Shown: positions 28,155-48,167, numbered from the stretch's first letter. The stretch is 64,000 bases of DNA from Candidatus Uhrbacteria bacterium (GCA_963822405.1 CAWGHH010000001.1:227717-291716); one strand, 5' to 3'. The notes: a model not told the origin generated them from the sequence alone. Translations and numbers: made by a program.

Positions 28155-28192
28155 GGACGGGCCGCACCACTAGGGTACGGCCCGTTTTGTTA
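28155..28192. terminator. bidirectional hairpin terminator between convergent HIT and aaRS genes
   Basis: ACGGGCCG-13 nt-CGGCCCGT followed by TTTTGTT; the complement gives a T-rich run on the other strand. Confidence 0.5.
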
Positions 28193-29506: not shown

Positions 29507-29531
29507 TGTGCCTCCTAGAGTTGTACTGATG

Positions 29532-30851
29532 CTACGGATAGACCGAGCGTCGGAAGGTACGAGGGAAGGGGATTGCATCCCGCACATGGTTGATGTTGAG
29601 GAGCCATCGCATGAGGCGTTCGACCCCCATGCCGAAGGCAATATGAGGCACGGGTCCGAATCCGCGCAGGTCTCGAATCCACTCGTACCGGGCGTCGCCC
29701 AGTTTCCCTTTTTCCGCCATTCGTTCGTCAAGCATCGGAAGTCCTACGATCTTTTCAGCTACACCGAGCAGCTCACCATATCCACGTGGAGCAATCAGGT
29801 CAGCAGTTCGCGTTACCTCCGGGTCGTCCGGATCGATAACGTACGGAAAGGGTTCCACCACGCGTGGAATGCCCATGATCCAGAAGGGACCGGTGTAGTT
29901 CTTTGAGAGGATGTCTTCCTCGGCAGAGCTGAGCCCTTTACCAAAGGAGATATCACAGCCCTTAGCCTGCAACTGGCTGATCGCATCGCGATAACGCAGG
30001 CGCGGGAAGGGTCCGTTCAGGCCCTCGGTGGAGTAGGAAGTACCGAGTACTTTGGTCGTCTCTTCTCCACATTCGCGACAGGCATGAGTGAGGCCCGCAA
30101 TGATGTTTTCCACGAGGGCGATAATGTCCTCGAGATCGCCGAACGTGGCTTCTGCCTTGATGTGCCAGTATTCCATGAGGTGCCGCTTGCTCCGGCTTTC
30201 CTCCCCGCGAAAACTGGGACCGATGTTGTAGACTCGCTCGAGCGCATGTGCCGCGCTCTCGAGGTAGTAACCCACGCACTGCGTGAGCAAAACCTTCTCG
30301 CCATTGATTTCGAGTCCGAGCGCGCTATTATCTTCGTAAAGTGGCACCGGCGTCAGGATAGGCGCAGTGATCTCTACGAAGCGATGATCGCGGAACCAGC
30401 GTCGTGCTTCCCAGAGAAGGGAGTCGCGAAACCGCATGATCGCAGCGATTTTCGGATGGCGAAGGTATAGGTGGCGATGCGCGAGCAGGTGATCGCTCAG
30501 ATTAGGATCGAACACGTCGAAGTCCTCCCTGAGCTGTGGCGAGATCTGTTTTGTGGCAGCTGAGATGATGGATAGTGAATCGGCCTTCACTTCCAGGTCC
30601 CGCGTATGTGGGTTCTCTTGTAAGTGACCATCGACTCGTACCGAGCTCTCAACTAGAGCGCGTTTTGCGGCCTCGAAGTCAGCTTCTGGCACTATCGATT
30701 TGTCCATTATGACCTGGATTTTGCCGGTGCTATCCGACACGTCCAGAAAGATTGCTTGTCCATGTCTCCGGCGTGCGGTGAGCCAGCCAAGAAGCGTGAC
30801 AGGCGTCCCGACACCGAGATATTTAAGGTCCTTGACGTAAATACTTTTCAC
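29532..30851 (-). CDS. class IIb aminoacyl-tRNA synthetase paralog (asparagine--tRNA ligase likely)
   Basis: OB fold VTLLGWLTARRRHGQAIFLDV, motif 2 FRGEESRSKRHLMEYWHIKAE, and a C-terminal GMGVERLMRWLL...IPFPR typical of AsnRS/archaeal AspRS. Confidence 0.7.
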   Translation of the reverse strand: MKSIYVKDLKYLGVGTPVTLLGWLTARRRHGQAIFLDVSDSTGKIQVIMDKSIVPEADFEAAKRALVESSVRVDGHLQENPHTRDLEVKADSLSIISAATKQISPQLREDFDVFDPNLSDHLLAHRHLYLRHPKIAAIMRFRDSLLWEARRWFRDHRFVEITAPILTPVPLYEDNSALGLEINGEKVLLTQCVGYYLESAAHALERVYNIGPSFRGEESRSKRHLMEYWHIKAEATFGDLEDIIALVENIIAGLTHACRECGEETTKVLGTSYSTEGLNGPFPRLRYRDAISQLQAKGCDISFGKGLSSAEEDILSKNYTGPFWIMGIPRVVEPFPYVIDPDDPEVTRTADLIAPRGYGELLGVAEKIVGLPMLDERMAEKGKLGDARYEWIRDLRGFGPVPHIAFGMGVERLMRWLLNINHVRDAIPFPRTFRRSVYP

Positions 30852-30959
30852 AACGCACCACCAAGCTTGATTGGTTCATCCAATGCTCCCCTGTGAAGCA
30901 TTCGGACCCTTGATCTTGGCTAAAATGAGAGATTCTGTCAAGCTATCGGAGGAGGTCTC

Positions 30960-31987
30960 ATGGTTCCCATCGATATTCGTGCTTATATGGCGTATACGTT
31001 GGCTTTTACTCCCGAGGAGAATACGCTCCGTGCTGAACTGATGGACTGGCTGCCGGTCGAGATCGTTGATAGTCATGCACACAGCAATATGCCTGAGCAT
31101 GTGTCTTCGGTCGATTCCCGGGCGTACGCCCACATGCTTTCGACGTTCCCCTTTTCTCTTTGGAGGATTCGAAGGCTATGCATCAGCGATTTTTTCCGGG
31201 AAAGAAGGTTCGTGCCTTGCGCTTCTCTCATGTGTTTCGTGGCATTGATCATCGGATCGTGAATTCGTATCTAATTGCCGAAAGTGCATCGACAGATCGC
31301 GTCGCCCTGTACGGGCTGCCGGACGACGAAGAGTATACGGTGGAGGAGTTGCGGACTGGCAGGTACTCGGCTCTTAAAATGTACTACTTGTATCTTGAGC
31401 CTCCGGGTACGGAGATCTATCAGTATTTTCCACCCCGAATCCTCAGGGAGGCAGAGCGTCTAGGAGTGCCGATCATTCTTCATCTGCCGAGGCGCATCAC
31501 GCAGTGTCTGCCGGATCTTCTTCGTCTGATCTCAGACTTCCCTCGTCTCACAGTGGTGCTCGCGCATCTGGGTCTTACCAAGATGCCCGTTCCTGGCCTC
31601 GCGGAGGCGTATGCATCTGTAGCCGTGCACGACAATATCTTCATGGATACAGCAATGGTGCCGAGTGCCGAAGTCGTAAAGATGGCACTCGCCGCTTTTG
31701 GGAGTAAGCGCATCCTTTTTGGTTCTGACGAACCTGTGAGTATGGTTCGTGCAGTTGTGTATGCCCATCCAGATTTGGGTCAGCGCCTGATCACAGAATA
31801 CCCATATCACTGGGTAAATCCAGAAGAGCATCGGAGTTTCAGGCATTTGGCTAAAGGAGCAATGCACGGTCTGTGGCCTGCACTGCGAGCCATCAAAGAA
31901 GCAGTCGAATCATTGGATGAGGAAGAGCGGTCTAAAGCTAGACAACGCATCTTTCACAACAACGCGGTCAAAGTGTTTGGCTTCTAA
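30960..31987 (+). pseudogene. amidohydrolase-2 family metal-dependent hydrolase, reading frame broken near 31150-31200
   Basis: The N-terminal IVDSHAH metal-binding motif is in frame 0 (30960-31262). The TIM-barrel remainder (PIILHLPRR...VLAHLG...LFGSDEP) is in frame 2 (31160-31987), and a T6 run lies at 31190-31195. Confidence 0.5.
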
Positions 31988-32040
31988 GTAAGTACAACGA
32001 TAAAGACCCCGGACACGTCGTGCTCCGGGGTCACCTTTTT

Positions 32041-33569: not shown

Positions 33570-33905
33570 ATGAGGGGGTGGCCTGTGATTTCAGCATTGG
33601 TGTTGTTTGTTATGACGTTCGTTGGGATAGCGTGGAACTCATTTGACGTGTATTTGCTGTCCTATCGTCTGGTTAAGCTGGGACCCAGCCAGTATATCGA
33701 AACAAATCGTGTACAGGTGATGCTCGGTGGAATGTTTGTTATATGGTCCTACCAGTGGGGCGTAGTTTATGAACATTCCATCGGTGCTAGTCCGTATTTT
33801 CTGATGATGCGGGCTATTCTGCTCATTGCATCCATCGTACAGATGATTGGTATTGTCACGTATTTCCTTCTCTTGCGAAAGTTTAAGATAGAGAATAAGT
33901 CTTAA
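33570..33905 (+). CDS. hypothetical small membrane protein
   Basis: 111-aa ORF with 3 predicted TM helices (ISALVLFVMTFVGIAW; MLGGMFVIWSYQW; AILLIASIVQMIGIVTYFLLL). Confidence 0.35.
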   Translation: MRGWPVISALVLFVMTFVGIAWNSFDVYLLSYRLVKLGPSQYIETNRVQVMLGGMFVIWSYQWGVVYEHSIGASPYFLMMRAILLIASIVQMIGIVTYFLLLRKFKIENKS

Positions 33906-33985: not shown

Positions 33986-34026
33986 GCAGGCTATTGTCAT
34001 GGTCGAATTGAGGATTTGAAATAGTT

Positions 34027-34042
34027 GTCGGTGGTCACCGAC
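34027..34042 (+). promoter_or_regulatory. palindromic site GTCGGTG-gt-CACCGAC (copy 2)
   Basis: Perfect 7-bp arms around a GT centre; direct repeat of 33972-33985. Confidence 0.3.
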
Positions 34043-34419
34043 ATGTATTGGTTCTGCGCTCGTTGAGCGTATTTTTGTTTCAAGGCTTAATGGCTTTAGA
34101 ACGTTCTACGCCAGCCGGCCAGCTGGCAACACGCCTGGCATAGCCGGGCAAGCAACTGAACATCTAATGCGTCCTAACTGAACAAAAGGGAAGGACACCT
34201 TGGAGAGCAGAAGCGATTATGACTTGTAGATGACTGCCGGGAATGGAGCTTTAACTGGGGAGTTTGGCTCTATTCCCGTTCTCGATAGGAGGAAATACCG
34301 ACCTCTATCTCCTCTCTCTCCTCGTGTCGGCATTGGATTCTTCTCTCCGAACGTTAGTTCGTACTCCCATATCGTTCGGGGTGGAATAATCTTCCCCAAT
34401 TACTTGTTTGGAGGATCTC

Positions 34420-36174
34420 ATGGATCGTCAGTATCGTCCGGTGTTCTTCCTGGTCAGTGTATTCCTTCAGGGTTGTGGCCCTCAGTATGCGCTCGACCAA
34501 GCGTTGGACGAGCAGAACGGAACGGCCGAAAACAATGGAGAAGGCGGTGGTACGGATGTGATCGTGGCTAATATGCCCTTTGCGAAGGGCTATGGCAGCC
34601 GGTGTGTGCAGGGCGCGAATGGCTCCTACTCGCATCAGTACACGAGCACGAAGTACGACCTCGACTTCGATACGCCGAACGACACGAAGGACCTCATCTA
34701 CGCGCCTATGAGCGGAACCGCGTATGTCCACGATGACGGAACGCACGGCTTCGGCCGGCACGTGAACCTGGATCTGCACGACGGCACGTACCTCATCATG
34801 GGGCACATGTCTGACGTGTTCATTCAAAACGGGACTGACGTGGCTGCGGGACAGATCCTGGGGTTTGAAGGAACCACGGGAAACTCGACCGGCGATCACG
34901 TGCACTTTGGACGGCATTCGGGCGACGCCAAGAAGGCGGGTAGCTACGGCGCCAGTTTGTCTGGGCTGAAGGTCAGAATGTTCGACGTGAACACGAACGT
35001 GGACGCGGACGTCATGACAAGTGACGCGACGTGCTCGCTCTCCGGCGGCCATCTGTATAAGTCGGAACTGCCGACTGCGCACTGGCATCCGGTGGGTACG
35101 TTCCTCAAGCGTCCGGGCGATTCGCTCGTGTTCGAGCGGGTGACGGGAAACGGCGTGCTCGCCTACATGAACGAGAACGCGTTTCTCTCCCGGGGTTACA
35201 GCTTTACGGACGTGGCCCTCATGTCCGATGAGGAGCTGGCCTGTTACTCCAGGGCGGTGACCGTTTCCAGCGCGGGTTACGTGCGGGCGCTACGGGATTC
35301 CAGTGGCGACGCCTGGATTCTCATTGGCCAGACGAACGACTCTGGGCGAAAGCGTCTTCGGGTGGACGAGACTGGCGTGGTGGGGATTCTGCAGAGCTAC
35401 GGTATCAGGGCGAGTTCGTATGACGACATCGATCACGGCGCTGACTCGGAAATCAGTTCGTACCCGAGCGCGGGGCGGGCGAGTTACCGGGACGGAACGC
35501 TGGTCTCCCAAGAAGGGAAGAGCGACGTGTACATCATGAACGCTGGCGTGGCCATGCCCATTCGGGACTGGAATACGCTACTCCTCATGGGGTTCAGCGG
35601 TCGGGACATTATTCGGGTGACCGGCGACGAGCTCCTGACGAACGTCACGTCAAAGGGCAACTGCAGTACGGACACGTATTGCATCACGAAAGAAGATATT
35701 ACCGAGTGCGCTCACACAGAGGAGGTTGACGATGCGAACGAATTCGAAACGGATTCAGGAACTGGTGCGCAGGGGAATGATGATTCGGGAGGGAACCAAG
35801 ATTCGGCAGTGGCAGATCAAGCGTTTACGCTTCAGTGGGTCACGCCGAATCGGCTGCTGGCTGATTGGATCACGGTAGCTGGTACCTGGACCCCGGCGTC
35901 CGGGGAAACCATCGGCTGGGATCCTATGCTGGCCGGCGTGCACAACGCGAACTCCGTCATCTACAGCAAACACAGCGTGAGTCACGGCGACAAATTCCGT
36001 TTCTCCATGGCCTACGGCTTGGGGAGCGCAGAATCCTGGTCATGCTTGGCACCTTTTCCGCCGGGCATCACTCGGGGCTCGCTCGTGACCGAAGTGGACG
36101 GTGTCTCCGTTTCCGTGCACACCGTGGCGGATCCAAATTCCGCCGGGTGTCAGCTTGAACTCGTCATTCCGTAG
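34420..36174 (+). CDS. M23 family metallopeptidase lipoprotein with long C-terminal extension
   Basis: Lipobox FLQGC. LytM-type catalytic motifs: HDGTHGFGRH.N.D (HxxxD; last D inferred from the translation) and GDHVHFG (HxH). An ~350-aa C-terminal domain of unknown function follows. Confidence 0.7.
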   Translation: MDRQYRPVFFLVSVFLQGCGPQYALDQALDEQNGTAENNGEGGGTDVIVANMPFAKGYGSRCVQGANGSYSHQYTSTKYDLDFDTPNDTKDLIYAPMSGTAYVHDDGTHGFGRHVNLDLHDGTYLIMGHMSDVFIQNGTDVAAGQILGFEGTTGNSTGDHVHFGRHSGDAKKAGSYGASLSGLKVRMFDVNTNVDADVMTSDATCSLSGGHLYKSELPTAHWHPVGTFLKRPGDSLVFERVTGNGVLAYMNENAFLSRGYSFTDVALMSDEELACYSRAVTVSSAGYVRALRDSSGDAWILIGQTNDSGRKRLRVDETGVVGILQSYGIRASSYDDIDHGADSEISSYPSAGRASYRDGTLVSQEGKSDVYIMNAGVAMPIRDWNTLLLMGFSGRDIIRVTGDELLTNVTSKGNCSTDTYCITKEDITECAHTEEVDDANEFETDSGTGAQGNDDSGGNQDSAVADQAFTLQWVTPNRLLADWITVAGTWTPASGETIGWDPMLAGVHNANSVIYSKHSVSHGDKFRFSMAYGLGSAESWSCLAPFPPGITRGSLVTEVDGVSVSVHTVADPNSAGCQLELVIP

Positions 36175-36242
36175 AACTCGTGGGACGCTCATGGAATATC
36201 CGTGAGCGTCCTAACTTTTTTTCATGATATAATTCACTCGCT

Positions 36243-39194
36243 ATGCACATTAGACCGTTCCTGCGGTCACTACTAAGTTTCTTTTCTCGTCACAAGGGAG
36301 CAATAATGATTGCGTCTCTATTTTTGGTCGTCGGTATTTCATTGTTCGGCGGGGCTCACATGGTTTCGGCGCAGGACTTGGGTACATCTGATCCAACAAC
36401 CGGCGAGTCCTCGTCAGCGGTTGGCACTGCCGCGAAGACAGCGGCGGCAATATTTTCTGGTGCGACTTTTGTGAACACCGTTTTAAGTGCCTTGACCTAT
36501 ATTCTTAACTATATAGTCATTGCTCTTGGAAAAATTACCATCTTGCTGATTGAGATAATCATCATTCCAATTTTAAACTACAATTCTTTTTCTTCAAGCC
36601 CGATTATTGGTCTTGGCTGGTCACTAGTACGTGACGTGATGAACATGTTTGTGATTGTGGCTTTGATTGCAATTGCCGTTTTAACCATCGTCGGCAATCA
36701 CAAAGCTCACTGGGAGCAACAGCTACCACAATTACTTATTGCGGTTGTGCTCATGAATTTTAGTCGAACAATCTGTGGACTATTTATTGATGTCAGTCAG
36801 GTGATCATGTTTACATTCGTTAATGCTTTGCTCGATATTGCTTCCGGCAACTTTATTCAGCTCTTCCAGCTTCAGGATTTTGGTAAGTTAAATCCCGTCA
36901 CTATCACCGCCTCTATAGTTGACGGCAATGGTTTTGATCCGTTCAGGCAATTCATTGAGGCATTTCTACAGATTCCTCTGTATGGTTCCATTGTTGCCAT
37001 CTTGTTCTTACTCGCTCTCGCGTTTCTTTACCGTATCGTTCTCCTCTGGATCCTGGTCATCTTGTCACCAATGGCCTTTTTCATGGGTGGTATTAAGGGA
37101 ATTTTTCATGGCGCAGAAAAATCTGCTGGTGACTGGTGGGGCAAGTTCACCGGCGCTCTCATGATGGGGCCTATTCTTACTTTCTTCCTCTGGCTTGCTC
37201 TGGCCGCTGCTTCAAGCGGTTCTATGGCCACGGCCGAGCATTTTGATGCTGCCACAGCCGGTGACACTACATTCTTCGTAGCCGCTCTTGACTCTAGTCA
37301 CGTAACTAGTCTTCTTCTTGCTCTCATTCTCCTCACAGTCGGCATGCAAATTGCCGGCGAACAGGCCAGCAAAGTTGGTGGCGCCGCCGCTTCACTTATT
37401 AATGAAGGTATGGGCAAGAAAGTTGTGGGCGGCGCGCTTAGGATGTCTACTGCTCCTATGCGATATGCGGCCACTGAAGGTGCGGCTAGAGCTAATATTG
37501 CGCTTGCTCCGACCGGATCAAAGTCGCTCATGGAAGGTGTCGGTAAGAAGATCGTTGGCGCAGGCGCGGCCGTTGGTGGAGTTCCATTGCTTGGTGCAGG
37601 TTTAGCTTCCATGGGCGGTGCAGCTGAAACATATGGAGCCAGTGTCCGTAAGGGACGTGAAGAGGCTGCTGTTAAGGCTTTCGCCGGTCAGAGTGAATCG
37701 CAAAAAATGGCTACGGTTGACATGATGGAGAAGAATCCTGGTCGATCTTCGGTAGAGGATCAGAAAGCCGTACAGAAGTCTTATCTTGATGATAAATTTA
37801 GAAAAGACAGAGAGAAGCATCTTGTTGACGGCGGTATGAATCCGGATGTTGCCAAGAAGAACGTTGAAGATAAATTCATTTCTACACTTTCCGGAGATCT
37901 TGAAAAGGTAGACACCTTGCCGGAAGCTGAGCAGACAAAGGTTTACGGCATGGCAAGCAAGAATATTGCTAAGATTTATAATAGCGGACCAAAGGGTGAA
38001 GAGATGGCCAAGAAGCTTATTGCTGGTGACAAGTTTGTGACCAGTAAGTTATACGATCAGGCTGAGGCTTTTGACGAAGTAAAAAATCCTGGAGTAGCTA
38101 AGCTTATTAAGGGCAAGCCAACCGACAAGATGAAACGCAATAAGGACGGCGAAATAATCGGAGCATATACGCAGGGAGAATTGGCCGCAACTGGTCAGTA
38201 TGGGCAGAAAGTTAAGGACATGGTTAATCCAACCGTCGCGCCAACTGTCCGTCAGCAGGCACATTTTGAAGAGCTCAAAACACAGGGCAGTGATGCGGGT
38301 GCATTTAAAGAGGCATTTGATAAAGAGAAAATTAGTGTTGCTGACGTTAAGGCTGGGGATTTTGCGGGCGACAGGGGAAATCAATTAACACAAGCGCTTG
38401 TGAGCGCAAAAGTTAATGTCGATAATCTTGGAGCTGGATCGTTCGATCCTTCCGTAGCTACCAATCCAGTTAGACAAGAGTTCGTAAAGAATGTTGTTTC
38501 TCAGCAAAAGGCCCAGGTTATCACTAGTGCGCTATCAAGCGGGAAAGTTACTTTGGCCGAGGTTAAGGAGTCTGACTTCACAGGTGCTACTACAGCTCAG
38601 AAATTTGAGCTAACGCGTGGCATTGTTGGAGCTGACGATACTTTGAAGGAGGAATACATGGATCCGCAGGTTCGTGACGCATTTGCGACTTCCGTGTCTG
38701 AGATGGGGTCTTTGGGTGTTCTCGGTCAGGAAGATGTGGCAGTAGCACAAGGAATGCTTCTTAGAGCTGGTAAGCCGGTGGAGGAGGTATTGCCAACGAT
38801 CCACTTGAGTCCAGTTGCTCTACCATCGTCATCTCAAGATCTTAGTCGCTTAGGTCAGCTTGTAAAGAATGATGCTGGAACTGCTAGGCATTTTGCTCCG
38901 GCGGTACCAGCAGATCTTGCAGCTCCAAATGAGATTACTAAGGTTATTTCTGAAAACATCAAGCCTGCTCAACTCAAGAAGTTAGTAGAGCAGATTTTGT
39001 CGGCTAAGGATGATCAAATGAAGGCTCAATCACGGGCGAGTCTTGAGACTATTGCTAAAGCGGTTGAAGTCCAGCATGCAGCGGCTCAAAGGCAGGCTTA
39101 TCTTCCTGGTGCTGGGAATGCCACAAAGCGTCAGCGTCTTAATGATTTGCACGATCAACTTTCTGAAACGATGCACACTGTGCGTTCGCTGTAA
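36243..39194 (+). CDS. large polytopic membrane protein, VirB6/TrbL/PrgH-like (T4SS channel component candidate)
   Basis: Signal sequence plus ~7 TM helices in the first 380 aa, then an ~600-aa Lys/Ala-rich hydrophilic C-terminal region. It lies upstream of PrgI-like and VirB4-like genes. Confidence 0.4.
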   Translation: MHIRPFLRSLLSFFSRHKGAIMIASLFLVVGISLFGGAHMVSAQDLGTSDPTTGESSSAVGTAAKTAAAIFSGATFVNTVLSALTYILNYIVIALGKITILLIEIIIIPILNYNSFSSSPIIGLGWSLVRDVMNMFVIVALIAIAVLTIVGNHKAHWEQQLPQLLIAVVLMNFSRTICGLFIDVSQVIMFTFVNALLDIASGNFIQLFQLQDFGKLNPVTITASIVDGNGFDPFRQFIEAFLQIPLYGSIVAILFLLALAFLYRIVLLWILVILSPMAFFMGGIKGIFHGAEKSAGDWWGKFTGALMMGPILTFFLWLALAAASSGSMATAEHFDAATAGDTTFFVAALDSSHVTSLLLALILLTVGMQIAGEQASKVGGAAASLINEGMGKKVVGGALRMSTAPMRYAATEGAARANIALAPTGSKSLMEGVGKKIVGAGAAVGGVPLLGAGLASMGGAAETYGASVRKGREEAAVKAFAGQSESQKMATVDMMEKNPGRSSVEDQKAVQKSYLDDKFRKDREKHLVDGGMNPDVAKKNVEDKFISTLSGDLEKVDTLPEAEQTKVYGMASKNIAKIYNSGPKGEEMAKKLIAGDKFVTSKLYDQAEAFDEVKNPGVAKLIKGKPTDKMKRNKDGEIIGAYTQGELAATGQYGQKVKDMVNPTVAPTVRQQAHFEELKTQGSDAGAFKEAFDKEKISVADVKAGDFAGDRGNQLTQALVSAKVNVDNLGAGSFDPSVATNPVRQEFVKNVVSQQKAQVITSALSSGKVTLAEVKESDFTGATTAQKFELTRGIVGADDTLKEEYMDPQVRDAFATSVSEMGSLGVLGQEDVAVAQGMLLRAGKPVEEVLPTIHLSPVALPSSSQDLSRLGQLVKNDAGTARHFAPAVPADLAAPNEITKVISENIKPAQLKKLVEQILSAKDDQMKAQSRASLETIAKAVEVQHAAAQRQAYLPGAGNATKRQRLNDLHDQLSETMHTVRSL

Positions 39195-39212
39195 TTGTGA
39201 GGGACTAACCGT

Positions 39213-40859
39213 ATGGCTATTGCTGACCTGCTCAAAATTCCACCGGTCCGTTCCTTTCTGTTGGGAGGCAAGAGCCTTGCTGAATTTAGGGTTGTCGCTA
39301 AAAACAATGATTTACCAGTTGAGCGCGCAGTTGAATTCCTTGATTTGTGTAATGCAGTAATTGATGGGGCGTTGCCAATGGCGGAGGTGCCGGGGATTAT
39401 TGCGCAGGCGTTTGGGAAGGATGAGGAGACGGCTAAAAAGATTTCGGCGGATATTTTTGGGTATCGAATTTTGCCACTTGAACCGTTTATTCCTGGGATT
39501 GGTGCGCAGATCACGGCTTGGGGCGGAAAATTGGAAGACTATCCAGCTAGACCGATTAGCAAAGAGCAAATTACCGCCTTTTCATGGGCGCAGAGGATGA
39601 ATGAGCTTGCTAATCTTGGATTTTCAGATGTGCTTGTGAAGCGTTTAGCCTTACTTCTTGATGGTCGAATTAGAGGCGAGAAAAATGCTGAAGCACTAAG
39701 AACATTTTTCGGTAGGCCGTTGACTATTGGTGGTTTAGCTTTATTGAAGGAAAAAGTTGAAGCTTTGTTGGCAGAAGTAGAGCGTGAGGCACCGTATATT
39801 GAAACAGTATCTGAAGAAGAATGGCAGAAGATAGAAATTGCAAAGGCTGAGGCGGAGGCTGCGGAAGAGGTGGAGGAATCGGCGGAGGGGTTTGGCGACG
39901 CCAAACCCGTACAACAGGAGGTGGCATTGTCGCAGGCTATAGAAATCGCCCCGCCAAAAGAATTAGCAGCAGAGGTGCCGTCAACGGTTGGTTTTGTGCC
40001 GGATAATTTAAAAGAAGTTGTTGATGAAGCTATAGATGCAGTAAAAGAAATACTTTTAGCAGAGAATATTTCTTTGGATAAATTCCGGTCACTAGCTCAG
40101 ATGAATATTAGAGGTGTTCGCGAACCAGGCCAGACGCGGGATATTCTTGAGAAAGAATACAAGTTAGCTGGCGCTGATTTGCGTGTAGTGTTGGATGCGC
40201 TAGCCGCCGGCAAGAAGAGATTTGATTTGGCGAAGGGGTTTGGCGGCGCCAAACCCGTACATAGCGAGGTGCCCGAAGGGCATAATCAGAATGAGTCCAA
40301 GGAATCGAGTGCCCTCGACCAAAAATTTGCGCAACTCACTAAGACCTTGCCGGAAGAATCCATTGAACCAATCATGCCGGGGTCAAGAGTATCGGCGGCG
40401 CGGGACACTCAATCACCCTCGACCAAGAAAATCATTCCTCTTAAGCCTAGGCCAGCCAAGGCTGAGTTAACTGTTGGTAGCGTTGCTCCAGGGGCTGTTG
40501 ATCGAAAGATGACTGACATAGTTCAGGCCTCGCGTTTAATGGGGCCAGTTGATCAGATTCAGAGCTTGTCGACAACTGAGTTTAGGCGCATGTCCAGTGA
40601 TCCCGCTGAGGCTGCGCGGAAAGTGGAAGATTTAATTATTGCGCTGTTAGCTACTGGCTATGAAGAGCGAGTGAGCGGTATTAATGCTTGGCGTAAGAGT
40701 CCTTTGAACCAGATGTATCTAGAGATTTCTGAAGAAGCACTAGGTGCCGGCATGACCATTCCGGATATTTGCAGCAAGCGCCGTAAAGAAAAAAGAGACT
40801 GTTTGAGCCCGGCGGAAATTAAAGCGATTATTGGACTTAATGCCAAGCTGAGATTTTAA
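39213..40859 (+). CDS. hypothetical acidic soluble protein (T4SS-cluster associated)
   Basis: 548 aa, no TM helices. Contains an internal ~44-bp direct repeat, each copy holding the GGGTTTGGCGnCGCCAAACCC palindrome (encoding GFGDAKPV and GFGGAKPV). Confidence 0.4.
   Translation: MAIADLLKIPPVRSFLLGGKSLAEFRVVAKNNDLPVERAVEFLDLCNAVIDGALPMAEVPGIIAQAFGKDEETAKKISADIFGYRILPLEPFIPGIGAQITAWGGKLEDYPARPISKEQITAFSWAQRMNELANLGFSDVLVKRLALLLDGRIRGEKNAEALRTFFGRPLTIGGLALLKEKVEALLAEVEREAPYIETVSEEEWQKIEIAKAEAEAAEEVEESAEGFGDAKPVQQEVALSQAIEIAPPKELAAEVPSTVGFVPDNLKEVVDEAIDAVKEILLAENISLDKFRSLAQMNIRGVREPGQTRDILEKEYKLAGADLRVVLDALAAGKKRFDLAKGFGGAKPVHSEVPEGHNQNESKESSALDQKFAQLTKTLPEESIEPIMPGSRVSAARDTQSPSTKKIIPLKPRPAKAELTVGSVAPGAVDRKMTDIVQASRLMGPVDQIQSLSTTEFRRMSSDPAEAARKVEDLIIALLATGYEERVSGINAWRKSPLNQMYLEISEEALGAGMTIPDICSKRRKEKRDCLSPAEIKAIIGLNAKLRF
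39888..39908 (+). repeat. palindrome GGGTTTGGCGaCGCCAAACCC (in frame inside CDS)
   Basis: Perfect 10-bp arms; the same core is found at 25729-25749 and 40236-40256. Confidence 0.5.
40236..40256 (+). repeat. palindrome GGGTTTGGCGgCGCCAAACCC (in frame inside CDS)
   Basis: Second intragenic copy, 348 bp downstream of the first. Confidence 0.5.
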
Positions 40860-40882
40860 TTTTGGCATGGTAGAATGGTGCT

Positions 40883-41323
40883 ATGCCGCGGAATCAATTT
40901 GTCGTTCCTCAGTTTCTTGATATCGAGCCGAGAATCATCGGTCCGATTACGGCTAGACAATTTATTATCATGTTAGTGGTAGTGTTAGTTGATTTTGCTG
41001 TTTATAGAATTTTCGCCAATAACATTCCCGTACTTCTCTTGCTCGCACTGCCAATTACTGGTCTTGGTGGAATCTTTGCCTTTGGAAAAGTTAATGGACA
41101 GCCGTTTCATGTTATTTTCTTGAACGTTATTCAAACAATTCGTCGACCCGGAAAACGCGTGTGGGATAAGACAATTTCTGACGCTGAGTTAAAAGTGCTG
41201 ATGTCGCTTGAAACGCTTCCGCCACCTGTTGTTAAGACGCGCAAAGGGCCGCTTGAAGGGTCCAGACTGTCAGAGTTGACCCTGATTGTGAATACTGGCG
41301 GCGTTTACGGTGGGGACGAATAA
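40883..41323 (+). CDS. PrgI/VirB3-like small membrane protein
   Basis: 146 aa with two TM helices (FIIMLVVVLVDFAVYRIF; VLLLLALPITGLGGIFAF); positioned directly upstream of the VirB4-like ATPase, as in Gram-positive-type T4SS loci. Confidence 0.4.
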   Translation: MPRNQFVVPQFLDIEPRIIGPITARQFIIMLVVVLVDFAVYRIFANNIPVLLLLALPITGLGGIFAFGKVNGQPFHVIFLNVIQTIRRPGKRVWDKTISDAELKVLMSLETLPPPVVKTRKGPLEGSRLSELTLIVNTGGVYGGDE

Positions 41324-41334
41324 TAAAACGGTTT

Positions 41335-42030
41335 ATGGCTATCCCAAAAAATAAACTCGCTAAGCCTAAAGTTGGACCTCCGACTCAAAGATTTCTTGAT
41401 ATTGCGGAAATTCGGGAAGATACAGTGGTGATGAAGGATGGAACCTTGAGAGCAGTGTTATTAGTGTCGAGCATTAACTTTGCCCTGAAAAGTGAAGACG
41501 AACAGCAGGCAACTATCCAAGGCTACATGCAATTTTTGAACGGTCTTGAGCATCCTATTCAGATTTCCATTCAATCTCGTAAGATGAATGTTGATGCGTA
41601 CATGCAGAAGATGAAGACCCAGGAGGAGACTATTAGCAATGAATTATTGAAGGGGCAAATTCGTGACTACATGTCATTTGTGTCAGAGCTGGTTGAGCTT
41701 GGCGAGATTATGCAGAAGCGCTTTTTCTGCATTATTCCGTATGATCCAATTGAGGCCGGACAGAAAAGCGGGTTTGTTCAGAGATTAACTGCGGCTATCT
41801 CGCCAGCAGCCATGTTGAAACTAAACGCTAAGCAGTTCCGAGACCGTCGGGATGTGCTTGTTCAGCGTGTAGGAAACATTGCTGGCGGTTTGCAGAGCAT
41901 GGGTTTGCAGGTAGTCCAGCTTGATACGCAGGGACTGATTGAACTTTATTACAATTCCTATAATCCAGGAGCGGCGGATGAGCAAAAGCTCGCCCCGATT
42001 GAAAAGCTCCAGGTTGAGACTCGCTTTTAA
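41335..42030 (+). CDS. hypothetical protein, T4SS-associated (VirB4 N-terminal-like motif)
   Basis: FLDIAEIREDTVVMKDGTLRAVLLVSSINFALKSEDEQ resembles the N-terminal motif of VirB4/TrbE proteins. It is a separate ORF; frame 0 of the next gene has a TGA at 42015-42017 upstream of its ATG. Confidence 0.4.
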   Translation: MAIPKNKLAKPKVGPPTQRFLDIAEIREDTVVMKDGTLRAVLLVSSINFALKSEDEQQATIQGYMQFLNGLEHPIQISIQSRKMNVDAYMQKMKTQEETISNELLKGQIRDYMSFVSELVELGEIMQKRFFCIIPYDPIEAGQKSGFVQRLTAAISPAAMLKLNAKQFRDRRDVLVQRVGNIAGGLQSMGLQVVQLDTQGLIELYYNSYNPGAADEQKLAPIEKLQVETRF

Positions 42031-42032
42031 GT

Positions 42033-43952
42033 ATGGCTTTTAACGTCGAAGACCTAAAAAAACAGCCTACTAGCGTGGCCACTAAAGCCCGCAAGCTTTC
42101 CGTTCAAGAAATGAAGGCTACAGAAGAGCGAGCGACCCTTGAGGAGGAACGGTCTTTTAGGCGAGGCACGGTTAGCGTTCGTGATCTAATTGCGCCAGCG
42201 TCTTTTGAGGTGCAGTCAACATATTTGGTAGTTGGTGATCGGTTTTGCCGGACACTATTTGTGACCACTTATCCACGTTACGTTGGTATTGGTTGGGGCG
42301 CGCCGATCATTAACTTCAAGGGAACAATTGATATTGGCATGTTCGTGTACCCAGTGAAGAGTGAGGTAATTTTGAAGCAACTACGTGACAAAGTTGGTCA
42401 GATTGAGTCGCAGATTGTATCTGATAATGAAACGGGGAAGCCACGTGATCCTATTCAAGAAACTGCGCTGCGTGATGTTGAGCAACTTCGAGATGACCTA
42501 ACGCAGGGAATCGAGCACTTCTTTCAGTTCGCTTTTTACGTGACCATGTATTCAGATAGCAAAGAGAACTTGGATAAGCGAACAGAAGAAATCGAAGCAA
42601 TATTTGGCGGAAAACTTATTTATTCAAAGCGTGGTTTGTATCAGGCCGAGCAGGGATTCAATTCGACATTGCCGTTGTGTAATGATGAGCTAATGGTTCC
42701 GTTTAACATGAATACGAGCCCGATTGCCTCGTCATTCCCATTTATCTCGTCTGATGTATCTAGCGACAATGGAATTCTTTATGGCATTAACCGCCACAAT
42801 AACTCGTTGATTTTGTTTGATCGTTTTTCGTTGCAGAATGCAAATTCGATCGTGTTTGCTACTTCCGGTGCGGGTAAAAGCTACTGTGTGAAGCTCGAAA
42901 TTTTACGCTCGATGATGATGGGCACGGACGTCATTGTTATTGATCCAGAAATGGAATATCGCCAGCTATCAGATGCTGTTGGCGGTACTTATGTGAACGT
43001 TTCGCTTTCTTCCCAAGCTCGCATAAACCCATTTGATCTTCCAAGGCCAAAAGGCGAAGAAACTTCTGTTGAAGATATTTTGCGTAGTGCGGTTATTACG
43101 CTCAAGGGGCTTCTGCGTATCATGATTGGTAAGCCAATGGGGGAGAAGGCGGTGCTTGGTTTTACGCCGGAAGAAGATTCGTTGCTTGACCGGGCCTTGC
43201 TTGAAACTTACGCCAAGAAAGATATTACGGCTGATTTGCCAAGCATGCTCGGTATCACTGAGTACCCAACGCTGAGTGACTTGGTCGAAATCTTAGAGGG
43301 CATGGAAGGCGGAGAGAACCTGGTAGCGAGATTAACAAAGTTTACTTCGGGGACTTTTGCCGGACTGCTGAACTCGCCAACTACGGTTGAGATGAGAAAT
43401 CAGCTAGTTATTTTCTCAGTGCGTGACCTTGAGGATGAGCTGCGTCCAATGGCTATTTATACCATTGTTAACTATATCTGGAACGTGGTTCGCTCGGAGC
43501 GGAAGAAGCGCATTTTGACTATTGATGAAGCGTGGTGGTTGATGCAAAATGAGGACTCGGCTAAATTTATCTTTGCCCTGGTCAAGCGTGCGCGCAAATA
43601 TTATCTAGGCGTGACGACTATTACGCAGGACGTTAATGACTTTTTGCGCAGCCAGTATGGTCAAGCGATTGTGACTAACTCGTCCATGCAGATTTTGCTT
43701 AAGCAATCACCGGCGGGCGTAGACACAATTTGCAATACTTTTAACTTAACCCAAAGTGAAAAGTATTTGTTGCTTGAGGCTGCTATTGGCGAGGGCATCT
43801 TCTTTGCCGGTCAGAAACACGCGGCTATTAAGATCGTTGCCTCTTATACAGAAGACCAGATTATTACGACTAATCCAGAGCAGTTACTGAAGATTGAGCG
43901 CGCCCGGGAAGAATTGCAAAAGTCATTGCAGAATGACGCCGATAAGAAATAA
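42033..43952 (+). CDS. VirB4/TraC/PrgJ-like type IV secretion ATPase
   Basis: Walker A FATSGAGKSYCV, Walker B ILTIDEAWWLM, and the conserved YPRYV...GWGAPII region. Confidence 0.75.
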   Translation: MAFNVEDLKKQPTSVATKARKLSVQEMKATEERATLEEERSFRRGTVSVRDLIAPASFEVQSTYLVVGDRFCRTLFVTTYPRYVGIGWGAPIINFKGTIDIGMFVYPVKSEVILKQLRDKVGQIESQIVSDNETGKPRDPIQETALRDVEQLRDDLTQGIEHFFQFAFYVTMYSDSKENLDKRTEEIEAIFGGKLIYSKRGLYQAEQGFNSTLPLCNDELMVPFNMNTSPIASSFPFISSDVSSDNGILYGINRHNNSLILFDRFSLQNANSIVFATSGAGKSYCVKLEILRSMMMGTDVIVIDPEMEYRQLSDAVGGTYVNVSLSSQARINPFDLPRPKGEETSVEDILRSAVITLKGLLRIMIGKPMGEKAVLGFTPEEDSLLDRALLETYAKKDITADLPSMLGITEYPTLSDLVEILEGMEGGENLVARLTKFTSGTFAGLLNSPTTVEMRNQLVIFSVRDLEDELRPMAIYTIVNYIWNVVRSERKKRILTIDEAWWLMQNEDSAKFIFALVKRARKYYLGVTTITQDVNDFLRSQYGQAIVTNSSMQILLKQSPAGVDTICNTFNLTQSEKYLLLEAAIGEGIFFAGQKHAAIKIVASYTEDQIITTNPEQLLKIERAREELQKSLQNDADKK

Positions 43953-43955
43953 TTT

Positions 43956-44519
43956 ATGACCAGAAAAAGTGAAATCGGTTTAGCTGTTGGAGTTTTAGTC
44001 TTATTGATTATTGTTGTTATTGCATTCATGCTTCGTCAGCCGGTAAAGTCTGCCATCGTGAGCGACGCAAGCGTCGTGCCAATCACCACTTCGAATGGTA
44101 CGCAGCTTCCCCCTCCCGGGGGGATAGAGGGGGTCGTTCCCGCGCCCGTTGCCAATCCTCAAACCGCTACCATGATTTTCGTTGAACGGTTTTCGAGCTA
44201 TTCGTCAGAATCTAATTTTGCGAATGTGAAAGATGTGTTGTCACTTGTGACAGCTAGCTTATCTACTAAGATCCAGGCTGTAGCCACTGAACAACGTGCG
44301 AAGGGAATAGATCAAGCCTATTACGGGATATCGACTAAAGTTATTTCACAGAACGTGCAGGAACAGACGGACACAGTCGCTACTATCATAGTTAGCACCC
44401 AACGAGCTGAGTCGATCGGCAGTCCAAGTAACGCCACTGTTCGTTATCAAGATGTTACAGTTAAGCTCATAAAAGAAGGCGAAGCATGGAAAGTGGACGA
44501 TTTCACCTGGGCAATTTAG
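43956..44519 (+). CDS. membrane-anchored hypothetical protein (end of T4SS-like cluster)
   Basis: N-terminal TM anchor LAVGVLVLLIIVVIAFML. Carries a GC-rich palindromic insert encoding PPPGGIEGVVPAP. Confidence 0.4.
   Translation: MTRKSEIGLAVGVLVLLIIVVIAFMLRQPVKSAIVSDASVVPITTSNGTQLPPPGGIEGVVPAPVANPQTATMIFVERFSSYSSESNFANVKDVLSLVTASLSTKIQAVATEQRAKGIDQAYYGISTKVISQNVQEQTDTVATIIVSTQRAESIGSPSNATVRYQDVTVKLIKEGEAWKVDDFTWAI
44107..44135 (+). repeat. GC-rich palindromic element TTCCCCCTCCCGGGGGGATAGAGGGGGTC (in frame)
   Basis: CCCCCTC/GAGGGGG inverted termini; same family as 44998-45056 and (reverse complement) 63293-63322. Confidence 0.5.
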
Positions 44520-45175
44520 TCGAGCCGTTCTTAAACGCAATTTTTCCGCGTTATTGTGTTTCGTGTAAACAGGAAGGATCTTTACTCTGTTCTTCTTGTT
44601 TTGCAGATTTTGATGATCGAGTATTTAAGGTCGAGGACAGCCATTTAACAATGTTCGCCTACGGCAACCCGATTATTCGTGATCTGATCAAGGCGTATAA
44701 ATATGACTTTGATCATTCGGCCTTTAGAATCTTGCAGCGTCTGGCCGAGCCGGAGATGCAAATTTTGAAGTCTTTTATTGGTGAAGGAATTCTGACACCC
44801 ATCCCACTGGCTTCATTGCGATTCCGAGAGAGGGGATTTAACCAGGCCGAAGAAATTGGTTGATGGCTCGCGAAATCAACTGGTGCGGAGATCTCTGATC
44901 TTCTAAAAAGGGAAGAAACAAGAGGCCACCAGGCTGAGCGTACCGTGGAAGAACGCGAAACGGCCATGGAACGGAGTCCGTTCAATATGGTTGCAACTTC
45001 CCCCTCCCAGGGGCTCGCCCGTAGGGCGGTCTACGCCCGAGGGGATAGAGGGGGTCTCAGTGTGGTTCTCATCGACGACGTCTGGACCACCGGTTCAACC
45101 ATGAAGGCGGCCGAAAGAACCTTGAAAAACAGCGGAATTGAGAATGTGAAATATATAACTTTAGCCAAAGGTTAG
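44486..45175 (+). pseudogene. comFC: ComFC-like phosphoribosyltransferase (competence protein F family) interrupted by an in-frame TGA at 44861-44863
   Basis: N-terminal Cys4 zinc finger (CVSCKQEGSLLCSSC), RERGFNQAEEIG motif, and a PRTase motif VVLIDDVWTTGSTM downstream. Both parts are in the same frame, separated only by TGA (EEIG*WLAKSTG). Confidence 0.55.
44998..45056 (+). repeat. GC-rich palindromic element, long variant (TTCCCCCTCCC-31 bp-GGGGATAGAGGGGGTC), in frame in the comFC-like gene
   Basis: Shares both termini with 44107-44135 but carries an extra internal 31-bp segment with its own imperfect palindrome (CTCGCCCGTAGGGCGGTCTACGCCCGAG). Confidence 0.5.
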
Positions 45176-45235: not shown

Positions 45236-45676
45236 ATGCCAGATGAAAGAGTAGAGTCAGTCATCGGAGAAATGCAATATGAAGGATTCCGGATCTCTCC
45301 TCTTCGACGAGAAATTATTGATATTTTCCTTCGATATAAACCTCCACAATCGGCCGATGAATTACAGGTTATACTTAATAAACGAAAAGTTCTATTTCAC
45401 AGGGCTTCTCTATATAGGGAGTTAGAATTCTTGATTAATTGGAAATTCTTGGAAAAGGTTTTGTTCGGTGATGGTGTTACAAGATACGAAACATCCTGGC
45501 ATAAGCATCATCATCACTTGGTTTGTACTAATTGTTCGTCTTCAGTTGATGTCGAGTTTCCAGAGTCTCCTCTTGAGAAAGTTGCTGAAGTTGCGGCAGA
45601 CAAATATTCCTTCTCTATTAAAAGTCACACTCTTGAATTTTTCGGCCTATGTCAAAAATGCCAGTCTTCGCGATAA
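45236..45676 (+). CDS. zur: Fur family transcriptional regulator (Zur-like)
   Basis: Winged-helix N-terminus, HHHHLVCTNC metal site, and C-terminal CxxC (CQKC). Confidence 0.8.
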   Translation: MPDERVESVIGEMQYEGFRISPLRREIIDIFLRYKPPQSADELQVILNKRKVLFHRASLYRELEFLINWKFLEKVLFGDGVTRYETSWHKHHHHLVCTNCSSSVDVEFPESPLEKVAEVAADKYSFSIKSHTLEFFGLCQKCQSSR

Positions 45677-46326
45677 AAAACCTTGGCTACTCAGCCGGTG
45701 GCAACGTCATTTTAGACGGGGTCACGGTTGATATTCATGAAGGCGAATATCTTGGAGTGATCGGTCCAAATGGCGGAGGCAAAACAACTTTTTTGAAAAT
45801 ATTACTTGGGTTGATTGAACCAACCGAAGGTTCTATTGGGCGTAAGGTTGACCGCGCTCGCGTGGGCTACATTCCGCAACGCAGCAACACTATTGGCGAG
45901 CATTTTCCAGCTACCGTGAGAGAGATTATTGAAAGTGGTCAGACGCCAGTGAAGAAGAACGCTAAAGCTCTCGCTAGAGCCATAGACGCTACTGGCGTTA
46001 AACATCTTTTAGCTCGACGAATCGGTACTTTGTCTGGCGGTGAACGCCAGCGAGTTTTGATTGCTCGCGCCTTGTCAGCGGAACCAAAAGTGCTCATGCT
46101 TGATGAACCGACGAGCGCGATTGACGTTAAAGGCCAAGAAGATTTCTTTCACTTTGTCCGAGAACTACGAGACAAGTTGAAGCTTACGGTTATTTTAGTG
46201 TCGCACGATGTTGATGTTGTATCACATGAAGTAGACGAAGTATTGTGTTTGAACCGTCACATGATTTGTCACGGTCCAACGGAGGAAATCATGCGTCATC
46301 CACACCTTATCCACGGACATAAATAG
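45649..46326 (+). CDS. znuC: metal (zinc/manganese) ABC transporter ATP-binding protein, ZnuC-like
   Basis: Walker A GPNGGGKTT, signature LSGGERQRV, Walker B LMLDEPTSAID. Confidence 0.8.
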   Translation: MSKMPVFAIKNLGYSAGGNVILDGVTVDIHEGEYLGVIGPNGGGKTTFLKILLGLIEPTEGSIGRKVDRARVGYIPQRSNTIGEHFPATVREIIESGQTPVKKNAKALARAIDATGVKHLLARRIGTLSGGERQRVLIARALSAEPKVLMLDEPTSAIDVKGQEDFFHFVRELRDKLKLTVILVSHDVDVVSHEVDEVLCLNRHMICHGPTEEIMRHPHLIHGHK

Positions 46327-46327
46327 T

Positions 46328-47368
46328 ATGGACAATGCTAATTACGCCCGTGCCAAGGTTTTGAACATCATCAAAGAAGGGGAGACTAATGATTCTAGTG
46401 GCTCGATGAAATTTCAGAATGTCACTCTTGAGATCCAAAGCGGAACTGAGCACGGTAAGATAGTAAATACTGAATACTCTACGGCCTCCGCCATTTTTGA
46501 TAAACAGAAATTACACACTGGTGAGCAGGTCGTTATTGCCAAGTCAACGGATTATCGCGGCGACACCTATGACGTCATGGACAGCTATAGATTGCCAATG
46601 GTTGGCGTATTCTTGTTGATTTTCTTTGTCCTGGCTGCTTTTTTTGGTAAAGGCAACGGGGCGCGCGCCGTGCTTGGACTTGGCGTCAGTTTGCTCGTCC
46701 TCATGTTATTCGTTGTCCCGCAAATCTTTGCCGGTCATAGTCCGCTTTTGATTTGTGGTCTTGGTTCGGCATTTATTGCGATCATTTCTATTCTCTTGTC
46801 GCACGGTTTGAATATCCGAAGTTACGTCGCTCTCGGGGCGACTCTATTTGCGCTCGTGGTTGCGTTCGTCTTCTCTGCGCTCGCCGTTCACTTGGCTGCG
46901 TTATCCGGGGGAGGAACCGAAGAGGCAATGTTCTTGCAACTAAACTATTTAACTAATGTCGATCTTCAAGGTCTGCTTTTGGGTGGCATGGTGATTGGTA
47001 CTCTGGGTGTACTCGACGATGTGACGACCGCGCAAGTGGCTGCCGTAGAAGAAATTCACAACGCCAATGACCGGTTTACCGCTGTTGAGTTATATCAGCG
47101 CGGGCTGTCTGTCGGGCGAGAGCATATCGCTTCACTCGTGAACACACTCGCTCTTGCCTATGTTGGCGCATCATTTCCAATTTTCCTGCTGTTCTCCATG
47201 CCAGACGCGCCACCACTATGGGTACTTCTGAATTCTGAGCAGATCATGGAGGAAATTGTCAGAGCGTTAGTTGGTGGGGGAGCTTTGATCTTGGCGGTTC
47301 CGATTTCAACTATCCTGGCCGCTTACATCTTTGCTGGACGAAAAATTAGAAAACAACACTATGATTGA
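46328..47368 (+). CDS. YibE/F family membrane protein
   Basis: N-terminal soluble region followed by 7-8 TM helices, with sequence character of PF07907. Confidence 0.55.
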   Translation: MDNANYARAKVLNIIKEGETNDSSGSMKFQNVTLEIQSGTEHGKIVNTEYSTASAIFDKQKLHTGEQVVIAKSTDYRGDTYDVMDSYRLPMVGVFLLIFFVLAAFFGKGNGARAVLGLGVSLLVLMLFVVPQIFAGHSPLLICGLGSAFIAIISILLSHGLNIRSYVALGATLFALVVAFVFSALAVHLAALSGGGTEEAMFLQLNYLTNVDLQGLLLGGMVIGTLGVLDDVTTAQVAAVEEIHNANDRFTAVELYQRGLSVGREHIASLVNTLALAYVGASFPIFLLFSMPDAPPLWVLLNSEQIMEEIVRALVGGGALILAVPISTILAAYIFAGRKIRKQHYD

Positions 47369-48167
47369 TTTTTTTAGCTCGGAATTGCTTTTAAGAGGTT
47401 TGCTGGCCGGTCTGGCTGTAGCCGCAGTCGCGCCAGTACTTGGTATCTTTTTGACGGTCAAGCGACAGTCGCTAATTGCTGATACCATTGCGCACTCTTC
47501 ATTAGCCGGTGTAGCCATTGGTATTGCTCTCGGCATTAATCCCATTATTGGCGCGGTCATGTTTGCGTTCCTAGCCGCCATTGTCATTCACTTGCTTGGA
47601 CGACGCGGGGGAATGCTGTCGAACGACGCCTCACTTGCGGTAGTTATGAGCGGTGGGTTGGCGCTAGCGGTAGTAATTTTGTCAGCGTCTGGTCAGCTTG
47701 ATACTGAGGCACTCGAATTTTTATTCGGCAATATTTCTAATGTTGGTATCCCGCAACTCACTGCAATTATTCTCGCCTCGACTACAGTATTATCATTCAT
47801 GATCCTGTTCTTCCGCGCCCTGTTCCTGATCGCCTTTGACGAAGACATTGCTCGCTCACAGGGAATGCGTGTAGACGCCTATAACCTCTTTCTAGCCCTG
47901 GCTACGGCCGTAGTGGTAGCAGTTGGCATGCAGGTAGTTGGCGTCTTGCTCATGGGTGCACTCATGATCATCCCTGTACTTGGCGCTCTAGAATTCGGTC
48001 GAAGTTTTAAGCAGACAACATTGATAGCTGTCATCATCTCTCTGTTGAGCGTTTTCATTGGCATGTATCTCGCTTTCACCTTTAATCTCGCCGCTGGAGG
48101 AACAATAGTCCTTGTAGCTATTGGTTTCTTTGTTTCTGGCCTGACCGTTAAGGCTCTTAGGCAATAG
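47361..48167 (+). CDS. znuB: metal ABC transporter permease (ABC-3 family, ZnuB-like)
   Basis: 8 TM helices with the ABC-3 family permease signature regions. Confidence 0.75.
   Translation: MIDFFSSELLLRGLLAGLAVAAVAPVLGIFLTVKRQSLIADTIAHSSLAGVAIGIALGINPIIGAVMFAFLAAIVIHLLGRRGGMLSNDASLAVVMSGGLALAVVILSASGQLDTEALEFLFGNISNVGIPQLTAIILASTTVLSFMILFFRALFLIAFDEDIARSQGMRVDAYNLFLALATAVVVAVGMQVVGVLLMGALMIIPVLGALEFGRSFKQTTLIAVIISLLSVFIGMYLAFTFNLAAGGTIVLVAIGFFVSGLTVKALRQ

Follow-up and report, generated by a model that had tools for sequence, protein, structure and literature searches.

A gene cluster on the chromosome of Candidatus Uhrbacteria bacterium (GCA_963822405.1, CAWGHH010000001.1:227717-291716) encodes a type IV secretion system (T4SS) of the kind found in almost every member of the ultra-small Patescibacteria (candidate phyla radiation, CPR), derived from the monoderm MPF-FATA conjugation machinery and specific to that clade, with a probability that we put at about 0.8. 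The sequence analysed was a window of 64 kb, and coordinates are counted from the first letter of the whole window. The genes run on the plus strand in the order M23–VirB6–p548–PrgI–TrsD–VirB4–VirB8-like–ComFC, an arrangement typical of the Uhrbacteria/ABY1 lineage, with comFC attached. A first-pass annotation had described eight open reading frames (ORFs) between 36243 and 45175 as a T4SS locus of Gram-positive type; all eight were found on the plus strand at the same coordinates, and the presence of an MPF-FATA VirB4 with TrsD, PrgI, VirB6 and VirB8-like proteins bears that description out. Intergenic gaps from the VirB6-like to the VirB8-like gene are 18, 23, 11, 2 and 3 nt, and the first 34 nt of comFC lie within the VirB8-like gene: VirB6 to ComFC are packed like one operon. 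Because the gene order is kept in ~80 species-level genomes, the cluster is not a chance assembly of genes. It is a further member of an already published kind of T4SS, real and not new.

Family scans (Pfam and NCBIfam) covered window ORFs of at least 100 aa across the 64 kb. For comparison, one genome per GTDB species was scanned for VirB4 relatives, which gave 514 stretches, and the best 80 of the 514 were used. The VirB4 ATPase itself (639 aa; 42033–43952, +) scored above the curated cut-off of NF045971, the model of CD1110-family VirB4 (341.6 bits, threshold 325; E = 8.9e-102; aligned over positions 157–730 of the 752 in the model), which identifies it as MPF-FATA type. It also matched Pfam P-loop_TraG (2e-27) and the solved VirB4 C-terminal domain (PDB 4ag5, 1e-47). 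Its Walker A (ATSGAGKSY, residues 275–283) and Walker B (ILTIDEAW, residues 494–501) motifs are those already read from the sequence in the first-pass annotation. Directly 5′, with gaps of 11 and 2 nt, lie the genes for PrgI and a TrsD-like protein. The PrgI/VirB3-like protein (146 aa; 40883–41323, +) is a small membrane protein with 2–3 hydrophobic segments in residues 27–68, an above-threshold match to Pfam PF12666 PrgI (E = 4e-11, 43.7 bits against 27) and 38–73% identity across related loci.

The 639-aa VirB4 lacks the N-terminal region that TrsD resembles. A domain of this kind is encoded by a free-standing gene (231 aa; 41335–42030, +), in which a VirB4-N-terminal-like motif had been suspected and which TrsD and TraC-like matches now support. 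The NCBIfam matches are weak and consistent: the N-terminal region of VirB4_plasma, a mycoplasma VirB4 model (4.4e-7), TrsD/TraD (6.2e-5) and positions 2–86 of the CD1110 VirB4 model (6.9e-5). An identical protein in a second assembly (L083) carries a precomputed match to PF26593, TraC-like. The TrsD-like ORF (51–81% identity) is separate from virB4 in 77/77 loci that show both genes, and stands immediately 5′ of it in 65; since it is a separate ORF in every one, the pair represents a conserved split and not a frameshift. The same protein matches the N-terminus of phrog_2666 (4.7e-10), which is labelled ‘terminase large subunit’ and is probably a misannotated VirB4-like family in prophage-like elements. 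Four more distant relatives (L064 8790-10001, L067 2320-9761, L079 1132-5990, and L076) have 1–7 kb of extra genes between the trsD-like gene and virB4, and no VirB8-like gene was detected in these four. Ten inserted ORFs scanned from L064, L067 and L079 gave no Pfam match.

Only predicted-structure comparison resolved the identities of the VirB6 and VirB8 membrane components. The protein p983 (983 aa; 36243–39194, +) is an extended, VirB6-like polytopic protein, as first proposed, with a transmembrane domain of ~430 aa and a hydrophilic C-terminal half of ~550 aa; its ~8–10 hydrophobic segments all fall in residues 20–455, and the C-terminal half is poorly conserved even between relatives. 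Foldseek matched its predicted structure (pLDDT 70.9) weakly to VirB6 proteins (E-values 0.09–0.19). The VirB8-like protein (187 aa; 43956–44519, +) is bitopic, with one N-terminal transmembrane helix, confirming the membrane anchor noted earlier, then a disordered linker and an NTF2-like domain. Its AlphaFold2 model (pLDDT 81.8) matched CagV, a VirB8 homologue, best among PDB structures (2.8e-5), with the VirB8 domain of PrgL ranking fifth of the VirB8-family matches (7.8e-5), and also R388 TrwG, TraE, TraH and TcpC. We name it VirB8-like because of its fold, its membrane anchor and its position beside virB4. An exact-sequence look-up of this protein returned no contig on record.

Profile support, which the first-pass annotation had sought for its component assignments, was obtained for PrgI through Pfam, whereas orthologue-alignment profiles of p983 and the 231-aa protein, like those of p548 and the 187-aa protein, found no credible match among PDB sequences. 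Scanned as single sequences against Pfam and NCBIfam, p983, p548 and the 187-aa protein gave no match, and just one of 34 p983 orthologues scanned singly matched TrbL/VirB6. PHROGs added nothing for p983 or p548.

A further component lies beyond the 5′ limit of the first-pass annotation, adjoining the VirB6-like gene. It is an M23 metallopeptidase (588 aa; 34408–36174, +; Pfam Peptidase_M23, E = 1e-14), likely a cell-wall hydrolase and VirB1 analogue. In the window protein and most orthologues a lipobox-like Cys (as in FLQGC) comes after a hydrophobic N-terminus, and on this ground we regard the enzyme as a lipoprotein. Its gene is immediately 5′ of the VirB6-like gene in 40/51 evaluable related loci, and M23-containing VirB1-type proteins are recorded in the published survey of Patescibacteria T4SSs (PMC12102498). 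Between the two genes (36181–36213, +), a strong hairpin with a 15-bp stem, 8 of its pairs GC, and a T run behind it matches the terminator consensus and suggests that the M23 gene may form a separate or attenuated transcription unit. The M23 gene is also richer in G+C than the remaining cluster, which at 0.45–0.48 equals the window average.

Comparative synteny, which the first-pass annotation had proposed as a check, showed the same order in ~80 species-level genomes. The best 80 relatives are metagenome-assembled genomes (MAGs) of Uhrbacteria or other Patescibacteria, with 68–89% VirB4 identity and the same gene order. All four upstream genes are present in 51/56 evaluable loci, and the VirB8-like gene together with ComFC in 66/74; in 64 of these 66, comFC starts ≤50 nt from the VirB8-like stop, with a median overlap of 31 nt. 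Housekeeping genes flank the cluster, and their synteny is kept in related genomes. Elsewhere in the window are genes for NusA, YidC, GroEL, a class-I release factor (RF1 and RF2 not distinguished), KsgA, lysyl-tRNA synthetase (LysRS), asparaginyl-tRNA synthetase (AsnRS), Fur and ABC transporters, three tRNAs, and recG (54091–55968) and radA (62137–63459); a chromosomal locus with comF, recG and radA in its neighbourhood and no relaxase nearby is the ABY1 pattern. The first-pass annotation had argued from the lack of a relaxase and VirD4 against plasmid conjugation, and we agree: scans of the window ORFs with Pfam and NCBIfam gave no match to relaxase, type IV coupling protein (T4CP; VirD4/TcpA) or integrase families, and the locus does not sit in a mobile-element context. 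The sole mobile-element-like gene of the window is an ORF resembling IS200 and REP-associated tyrosine transposases (RAYT), ~10 kb 5′ of the cluster. From the shared gene order, the 68–89% VirB4 identity, the housekeeping flanks and the lack of relaxase and coupling protein in 64 kb, we consider the cluster a vertically inherited host-interaction machine and not a conjugative element, a conclusion that we hold as likely; T4SS identity and non-conjugative nature, taken together, are very likely.

The last gene, comFC (44486–45175, +), encodes a four-Cys zinc finger and a phosphoribosyltransferase (PRT)-type domain (Pfam DZR_2 and Pribosyltran). C24, C27, C35 and C38 are invariant, and the motifs RGF(N/D)Q and DDVxTTG are present. 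The product scored 69.5 bits against TIGR00201 comF (3.3e-19; cut-off 233.55) and 39.1 against GntX (cut-off 304), and so falls below the curated thresholds; it is a divergent member of the family. As the first-pass annotation had seen, this comFC-like gene immediately downstream is interrupted: ORFs 44486–44863 and 44945–45175 form one reading frame split by a single TGA (44861–44863) after codon 125, at a variable position just 5′ of a conserved Trp codon. The truncated product would be without its PRT domain. In all relatives examined (L081, L001 and ~70 others) comFC is intact, at 196–262 aa.

An assembly artefact is an unlikely source of this stop. The Logan assembly of run ERR12037365 (L083), which is independent, is 100% identical to the window over 8,020 nt (window 37019–45038) and carries the same TGA, which is therefore in the reads. 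Recoding of TGA is rejected: TGA ends 7/45 scored window ORF calls, the comFC stop among them, and at this position every relative has a sense codon. As the stop is premature, the link between ComFC and the T4SS is broken or dispensable in this genome. Further 3′, comFC contains a GC-rich, partly palindromic in-frame insert (44995–45060; CCCCCTC...GAGGGGG, encoding SPSQGLARRAVYARGDRGG) that occurs once in the window. In several relatives the corresponding place is taken by inserts unrelated to it, and the Logan contig ends inside this one (window 45038).

The second gene after the hydrolase, p548 (548 aa; 39213–40859, +), encodes an acidic soluble protein (isoelectric point 5.17, no transmembrane segment) with a strongly conserved C-terminal domain of ~120 aa. 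It gave no Pfam, NCBIfam, PHROG or PDB-profile match and its database homologues are Patescibacteria proteins without a name (42/42), and it keeps the same position in >70 related loci; p548 appears to be a conserved, lineage-specific subunit. The first-pass annotation had described an acidic protein with internal palindromic repeats. The acidity and the repeats are real, but the repeats look REP-like (repetitive extragenic palindromic) and unlike a T4SS feature. Two in-frame copies of a 21-nt palindrome, GGGTTTGGCG-N-CGCCAAACCC, lie in p548, each within a 48-nt direct repeat, where 0.01 matches are expected by chance. The first repeat (39876–39923) carries GGGTTTGGCGACGCCAAACCC at 39888–39908, in frame in a variable linker of p548, and the second (40224–40271), 348 nt 3′ of the first, carries GGGTTTGGCGGCGCCAAACCC at 40236–40256. 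A third copy of GGGTTTGGCG-N-CGCCAAACCC, with one mismatch, lies at 25729–25749, within a hairpin between the gene for a 2963-aa protein and a convergent ORF (25771–26490, minus strand) whose best match is NF047646, ‘REP-associated tyrosine transposase’ (1e-12, under the cut-off).

In the closest relative, L081, another palindrome, GCGGGGTTTTAAACCCCGC, occupies both of these linker positions of p548 (L081 10671-10689 and 11016-11034). Further GC-rich palindromes occur at these linkers in other orthologues, paired in L024 and L058. Hairpin density in the p548 gene is not above that of control genes. These palindromes look like REP-like elements tolerated in frame in variable linkers, and the in-frame palindromic elements of Rickettsia resemble them, which we take as a lead.

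By analogy with known T4SSs, the lipoprotein M23 hydrolase would open the cell wall locally, and VirB6, VirB3 and VirB8 would form a membrane translocon. A VirB4 hexamer, its N-terminal domain supplied in trans by TrsD, may dock on this translocon and power assembly and translocation. Wang and colleagues are said to have obtained functional T4SS data from Southlakia epibionticum in 2023. The machine would act at contact with the host cell, as does the homologous Southlakia system, whose T4SS genes were essential for epibiotic growth in transposon sequencing, where comEC was not (PMC12857230). A role for ComFC in receiving incoming nucleic acid at the cytoplasmic face is the guess that we favour, though a rather doubtful one; we consider it because in almost all related species the start of comFC lies inside the VirB8-like gene. 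The tight, conserved comFC junction, together with recG and radA close by, speaks for a connection of some sort with nucleic-acid handling, while the Southlakia genetics and the broken comFC caution against a ComFC essential to the machine. DNA uptake or epibiont contact, the candidate role named in the first-pass annotation, stays a role that we infer.

The origin and the cargo of the cluster can be read in other ways. That it is a degraded or cryptic conjugative element of Gram-positive type, the remnant of a plasmid or an integrative and conjugative element lodged in the chromosome, is very improbable. The VirB4, PrgI and TrsD families do stem from monoderm conjugative elements, and a RAYT/IS200-like gene lies 10 kb upstream; against this, the window scans detected no relaxase, T4CP, integrase or replication gene, the locus and its flanks are alike across ~80 species at the VirB4 identities given above, the G+C composition is native, and in the published phylogeny the clade is monophyletic and congruent with class. 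With a conserved housekeeping context and no relaxase, coupling or integrase match, a conjugative element is ruled out for practical purposes. A plausible account, to which we give somewhat less than an even chance, is that the machine is an exporter or contact device that sends effectors, or extends a pilus or adhesive conduit, toward the host without a coupling protein, as do Bordetella Ptl or Brucella VirB, and that ComFC is a mere neighbour serving ComEC/type IV pilus competence. In Southlakia the T4SS is essential and comEC is not, which indicates that the role of the T4SS there is not transformation; here comFC is broken and all T4SS genes are intact; T4SS loci outside ABY1 are not linked to comF; and protein-exporting T4SSs without a T4CP exist. 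Such a device fits less well with a comFC start ≤50 nt from the VirB8-like stop in 64/66 loci, which is tighter than a casual neighbourhood, with recG and radA also nearby, and with a cluster in which no effector-like or pilin gene was identified.

More tentatively, the cluster may be a nucleic-acid importer with ComFC built in as a cytoplasmic subunit, in the place of coupling protein and relaxase, and with host DNA or RNA drawn through the VirB6/VirB8 channel, analogous to H. pylori ComB with ComFC or to archaeal Ced. The conserved overlapping VirB8-like/comFC pair speaks for it, as do the neighbouring recG and radA, a setting already published for ABY1, and the nature of ComFC, a membrane-associated protein with zinc finger and PRT architecture that binds single-stranded DNA, is needed for DNA transport and requires its PRT domain (PMC9005727). 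Patescibacteria are without nucleotide synthesis, and a 2026 preprint describes a cultivated member that takes up host RNA and has tube-like structures that may be T4SS pili. VirB4 also matches the DNA-import ATPase CedB, but at 44.4 bits against a cut-off of 700, and neither the ComB outer-membrane core nor CedA/CedB was recognised here. Moreover, ComFC elsewhere works with ComEC and H. pylori ComFC needs its PRT domain in vivo (PMC9005727), before which the gene is truncated in this genome. The strongest form of this account, in which the ComFC of the ABY1 lineage is a dedicated cytoplasmic T4SS subunit, translationally coupled to the VirB8-like gene, and imports host single-stranded nucleic acid independently of ComEC, with ComFC (perhaps with p548) replacing coupling protein and relaxase, is unlikely.

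Several points weigh against our preferred reading of the cluster as a vertically inherited Patescibacteria T4SS, or against parts of it. The TrsD match, at 22.9 bits, is far under the NCBIfam cut-off of 200. The VirB6 and VirB8 assignments depend on predicted structures (pLDDT 70.9 and 81.8), and NTF2-like folds are common outside T4SSs, ARC6 and others scoring comparably to the VirB8 matches. No VirB2-like pilin, a frequent and not universal component that many Patescibacteria loci have, was found by layout and family match among the small ORFs near the cluster; one candidate, the ORF at 33570–33905, has hydrophobic segments and was rejected, as it has no family match and no counterpart in relatives, and the small ORFs at 33–34 kb are not conserved in relatives. 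The subunit p548 is without a known counterpart. That comFC is interrupted in this genome speaks against a ComFC that the machine cannot do without, and competence and T4SS essentiality are genetically separable in Southlakia. Every step of the mechanism is drawn from homology, and Uhrbacteria are presumed to belong to GTDB class ABY1.

The substrate of this near-universal Patescibacteria T4SS bears on how genome-reduced epibionts feed on their hosts. The junction of comFC with the last T4SS gene in ~65 species provides a concrete, testable candidate for a nucleic-acid-handling partner and sharpens the published hint. New here is the fold-level annotation of three lineage proteins without earlier names (the extended VirB6, the VirB8-like protein and the M23 lipoprotein), and p548 is flagged as a conserved subunit of the T4SS locus.

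Directly 3′ of comFC (45236–48167) are genes for a Fur-family regulator, an ABC ATPase, a YibE/F-like membrane protein and an ABC-3 permease; this Fur–ABC neighbourhood is common to most of the closest ~17 relatives, bar loci on short contigs and L014, which has no Fur. Far upstream (16812–25703, +) lies a giant ORF of 2963 aa with a weak CBM_4_9 match, preceded by a 229-aa TSP3-repeat protein. The closest relative has a counterpart of 2906 aa in the corresponding place (L081 1-1317), and the giant ORF is possibly a surface or adhesion protein conserved near the T4SS. A block of genes for LysRS, AsnRS, an amidohydrolase and an alpha/beta hydrolase separates a HIT gene from the M23 gene here and is absent from that interval in L081. 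G+C rises to 0.53–0.57 at 28000–32000 and 34000–36000, compared with ~0.47 elsewhere in the window. Many public MAGs with this locus (L009-L012, L014, L017-L018 and others) bear the title ‘uncultured Gammaproteobacteria bacterium’, and one bears ‘Candidatus Kapaibacterium’, apparently through taxonomic mislabelling.

Compared with known systems, p983 shares with the extended VirB6 proteins, Rickettsiales RvhB6 and the N-domain of F-plasmid TraG (PMC12857230), a polytopic VirB6 domain with a large hydrophilic domain C-terminal to it, but no sequence similarity was detected between those extensions and that of p983. H. pylori ComB is likewise a T4SS that has neither relaxase nor T4CP, DNA entry in this species depends on ComFC as well, and H. 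pylori ComFC has the same zinc-finger and PRT architecture. ComB, however, is of the diderm VirB2–10 type, brings DNA only to the periplasm and leaves the inner membrane to ComEC, and comFC lies outside the comB operons; in the Uhrbacteria cluster no matches to VirB7, VirB9 or VirB10 were found.

The conjugative MPF-FATA systems (PrgH/I/J/K/L of pCF10, TrsC/D/E of pGO1 and the CD1110 system of C. difficile CTn2) have the same core set: VirB6 (PrgH), VirB3 (PrgI/TrsC), TrsD, VirB4 (PrgJ/TrsE/CD1110), a VirB8-like protein (PrgL) and a hydrolase (PrgK/TrsG), with no outer-membrane core proteins. In contrast to these, the window cluster is without relaxase, coupling protein, adhesin or oriT and is not on a mobile element; its hydrolase is of the M23 and not the SLT/CHAP type, its VirB6 has a hydrophilic extension of ~550 aa, and ComFC is attached.

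The closest likeness is to the Patescibacteria clade itself. In a survey of 3,035 Patescibacteria genomes, Quiñonero-Coronel et al. 2025 (PMC12102498) found VirB4 in 2,417, where it forms a monophyletic clade inside MPF-FATA. Its commonest partner was TrsD; PrgI/VirB3, VirB6 and M23-containing hydrolases occurred too, VirB8 was almost confined to class ABY1, relaxases were almost absent, and ABY1 T4SS loci commonly included comF, recG and radA. The present cluster differs in that no VirB2-like pilin array adjoins it, p548 is not a named component there, VirB6 and VirB8 are recognisable here by predicted structure alone, and comFC has a stop codon. It agrees with that clade in a VirB4 descended from MPF-FATA, with the genes for TrsD and PrgI/VirB3 directly 5′ of its own, in VirB6, a VirB8-like protein and an M23-type hydrolase, and in a chromosomal location without relaxase; the comF, recG and radA of ABY1 are all in this window.

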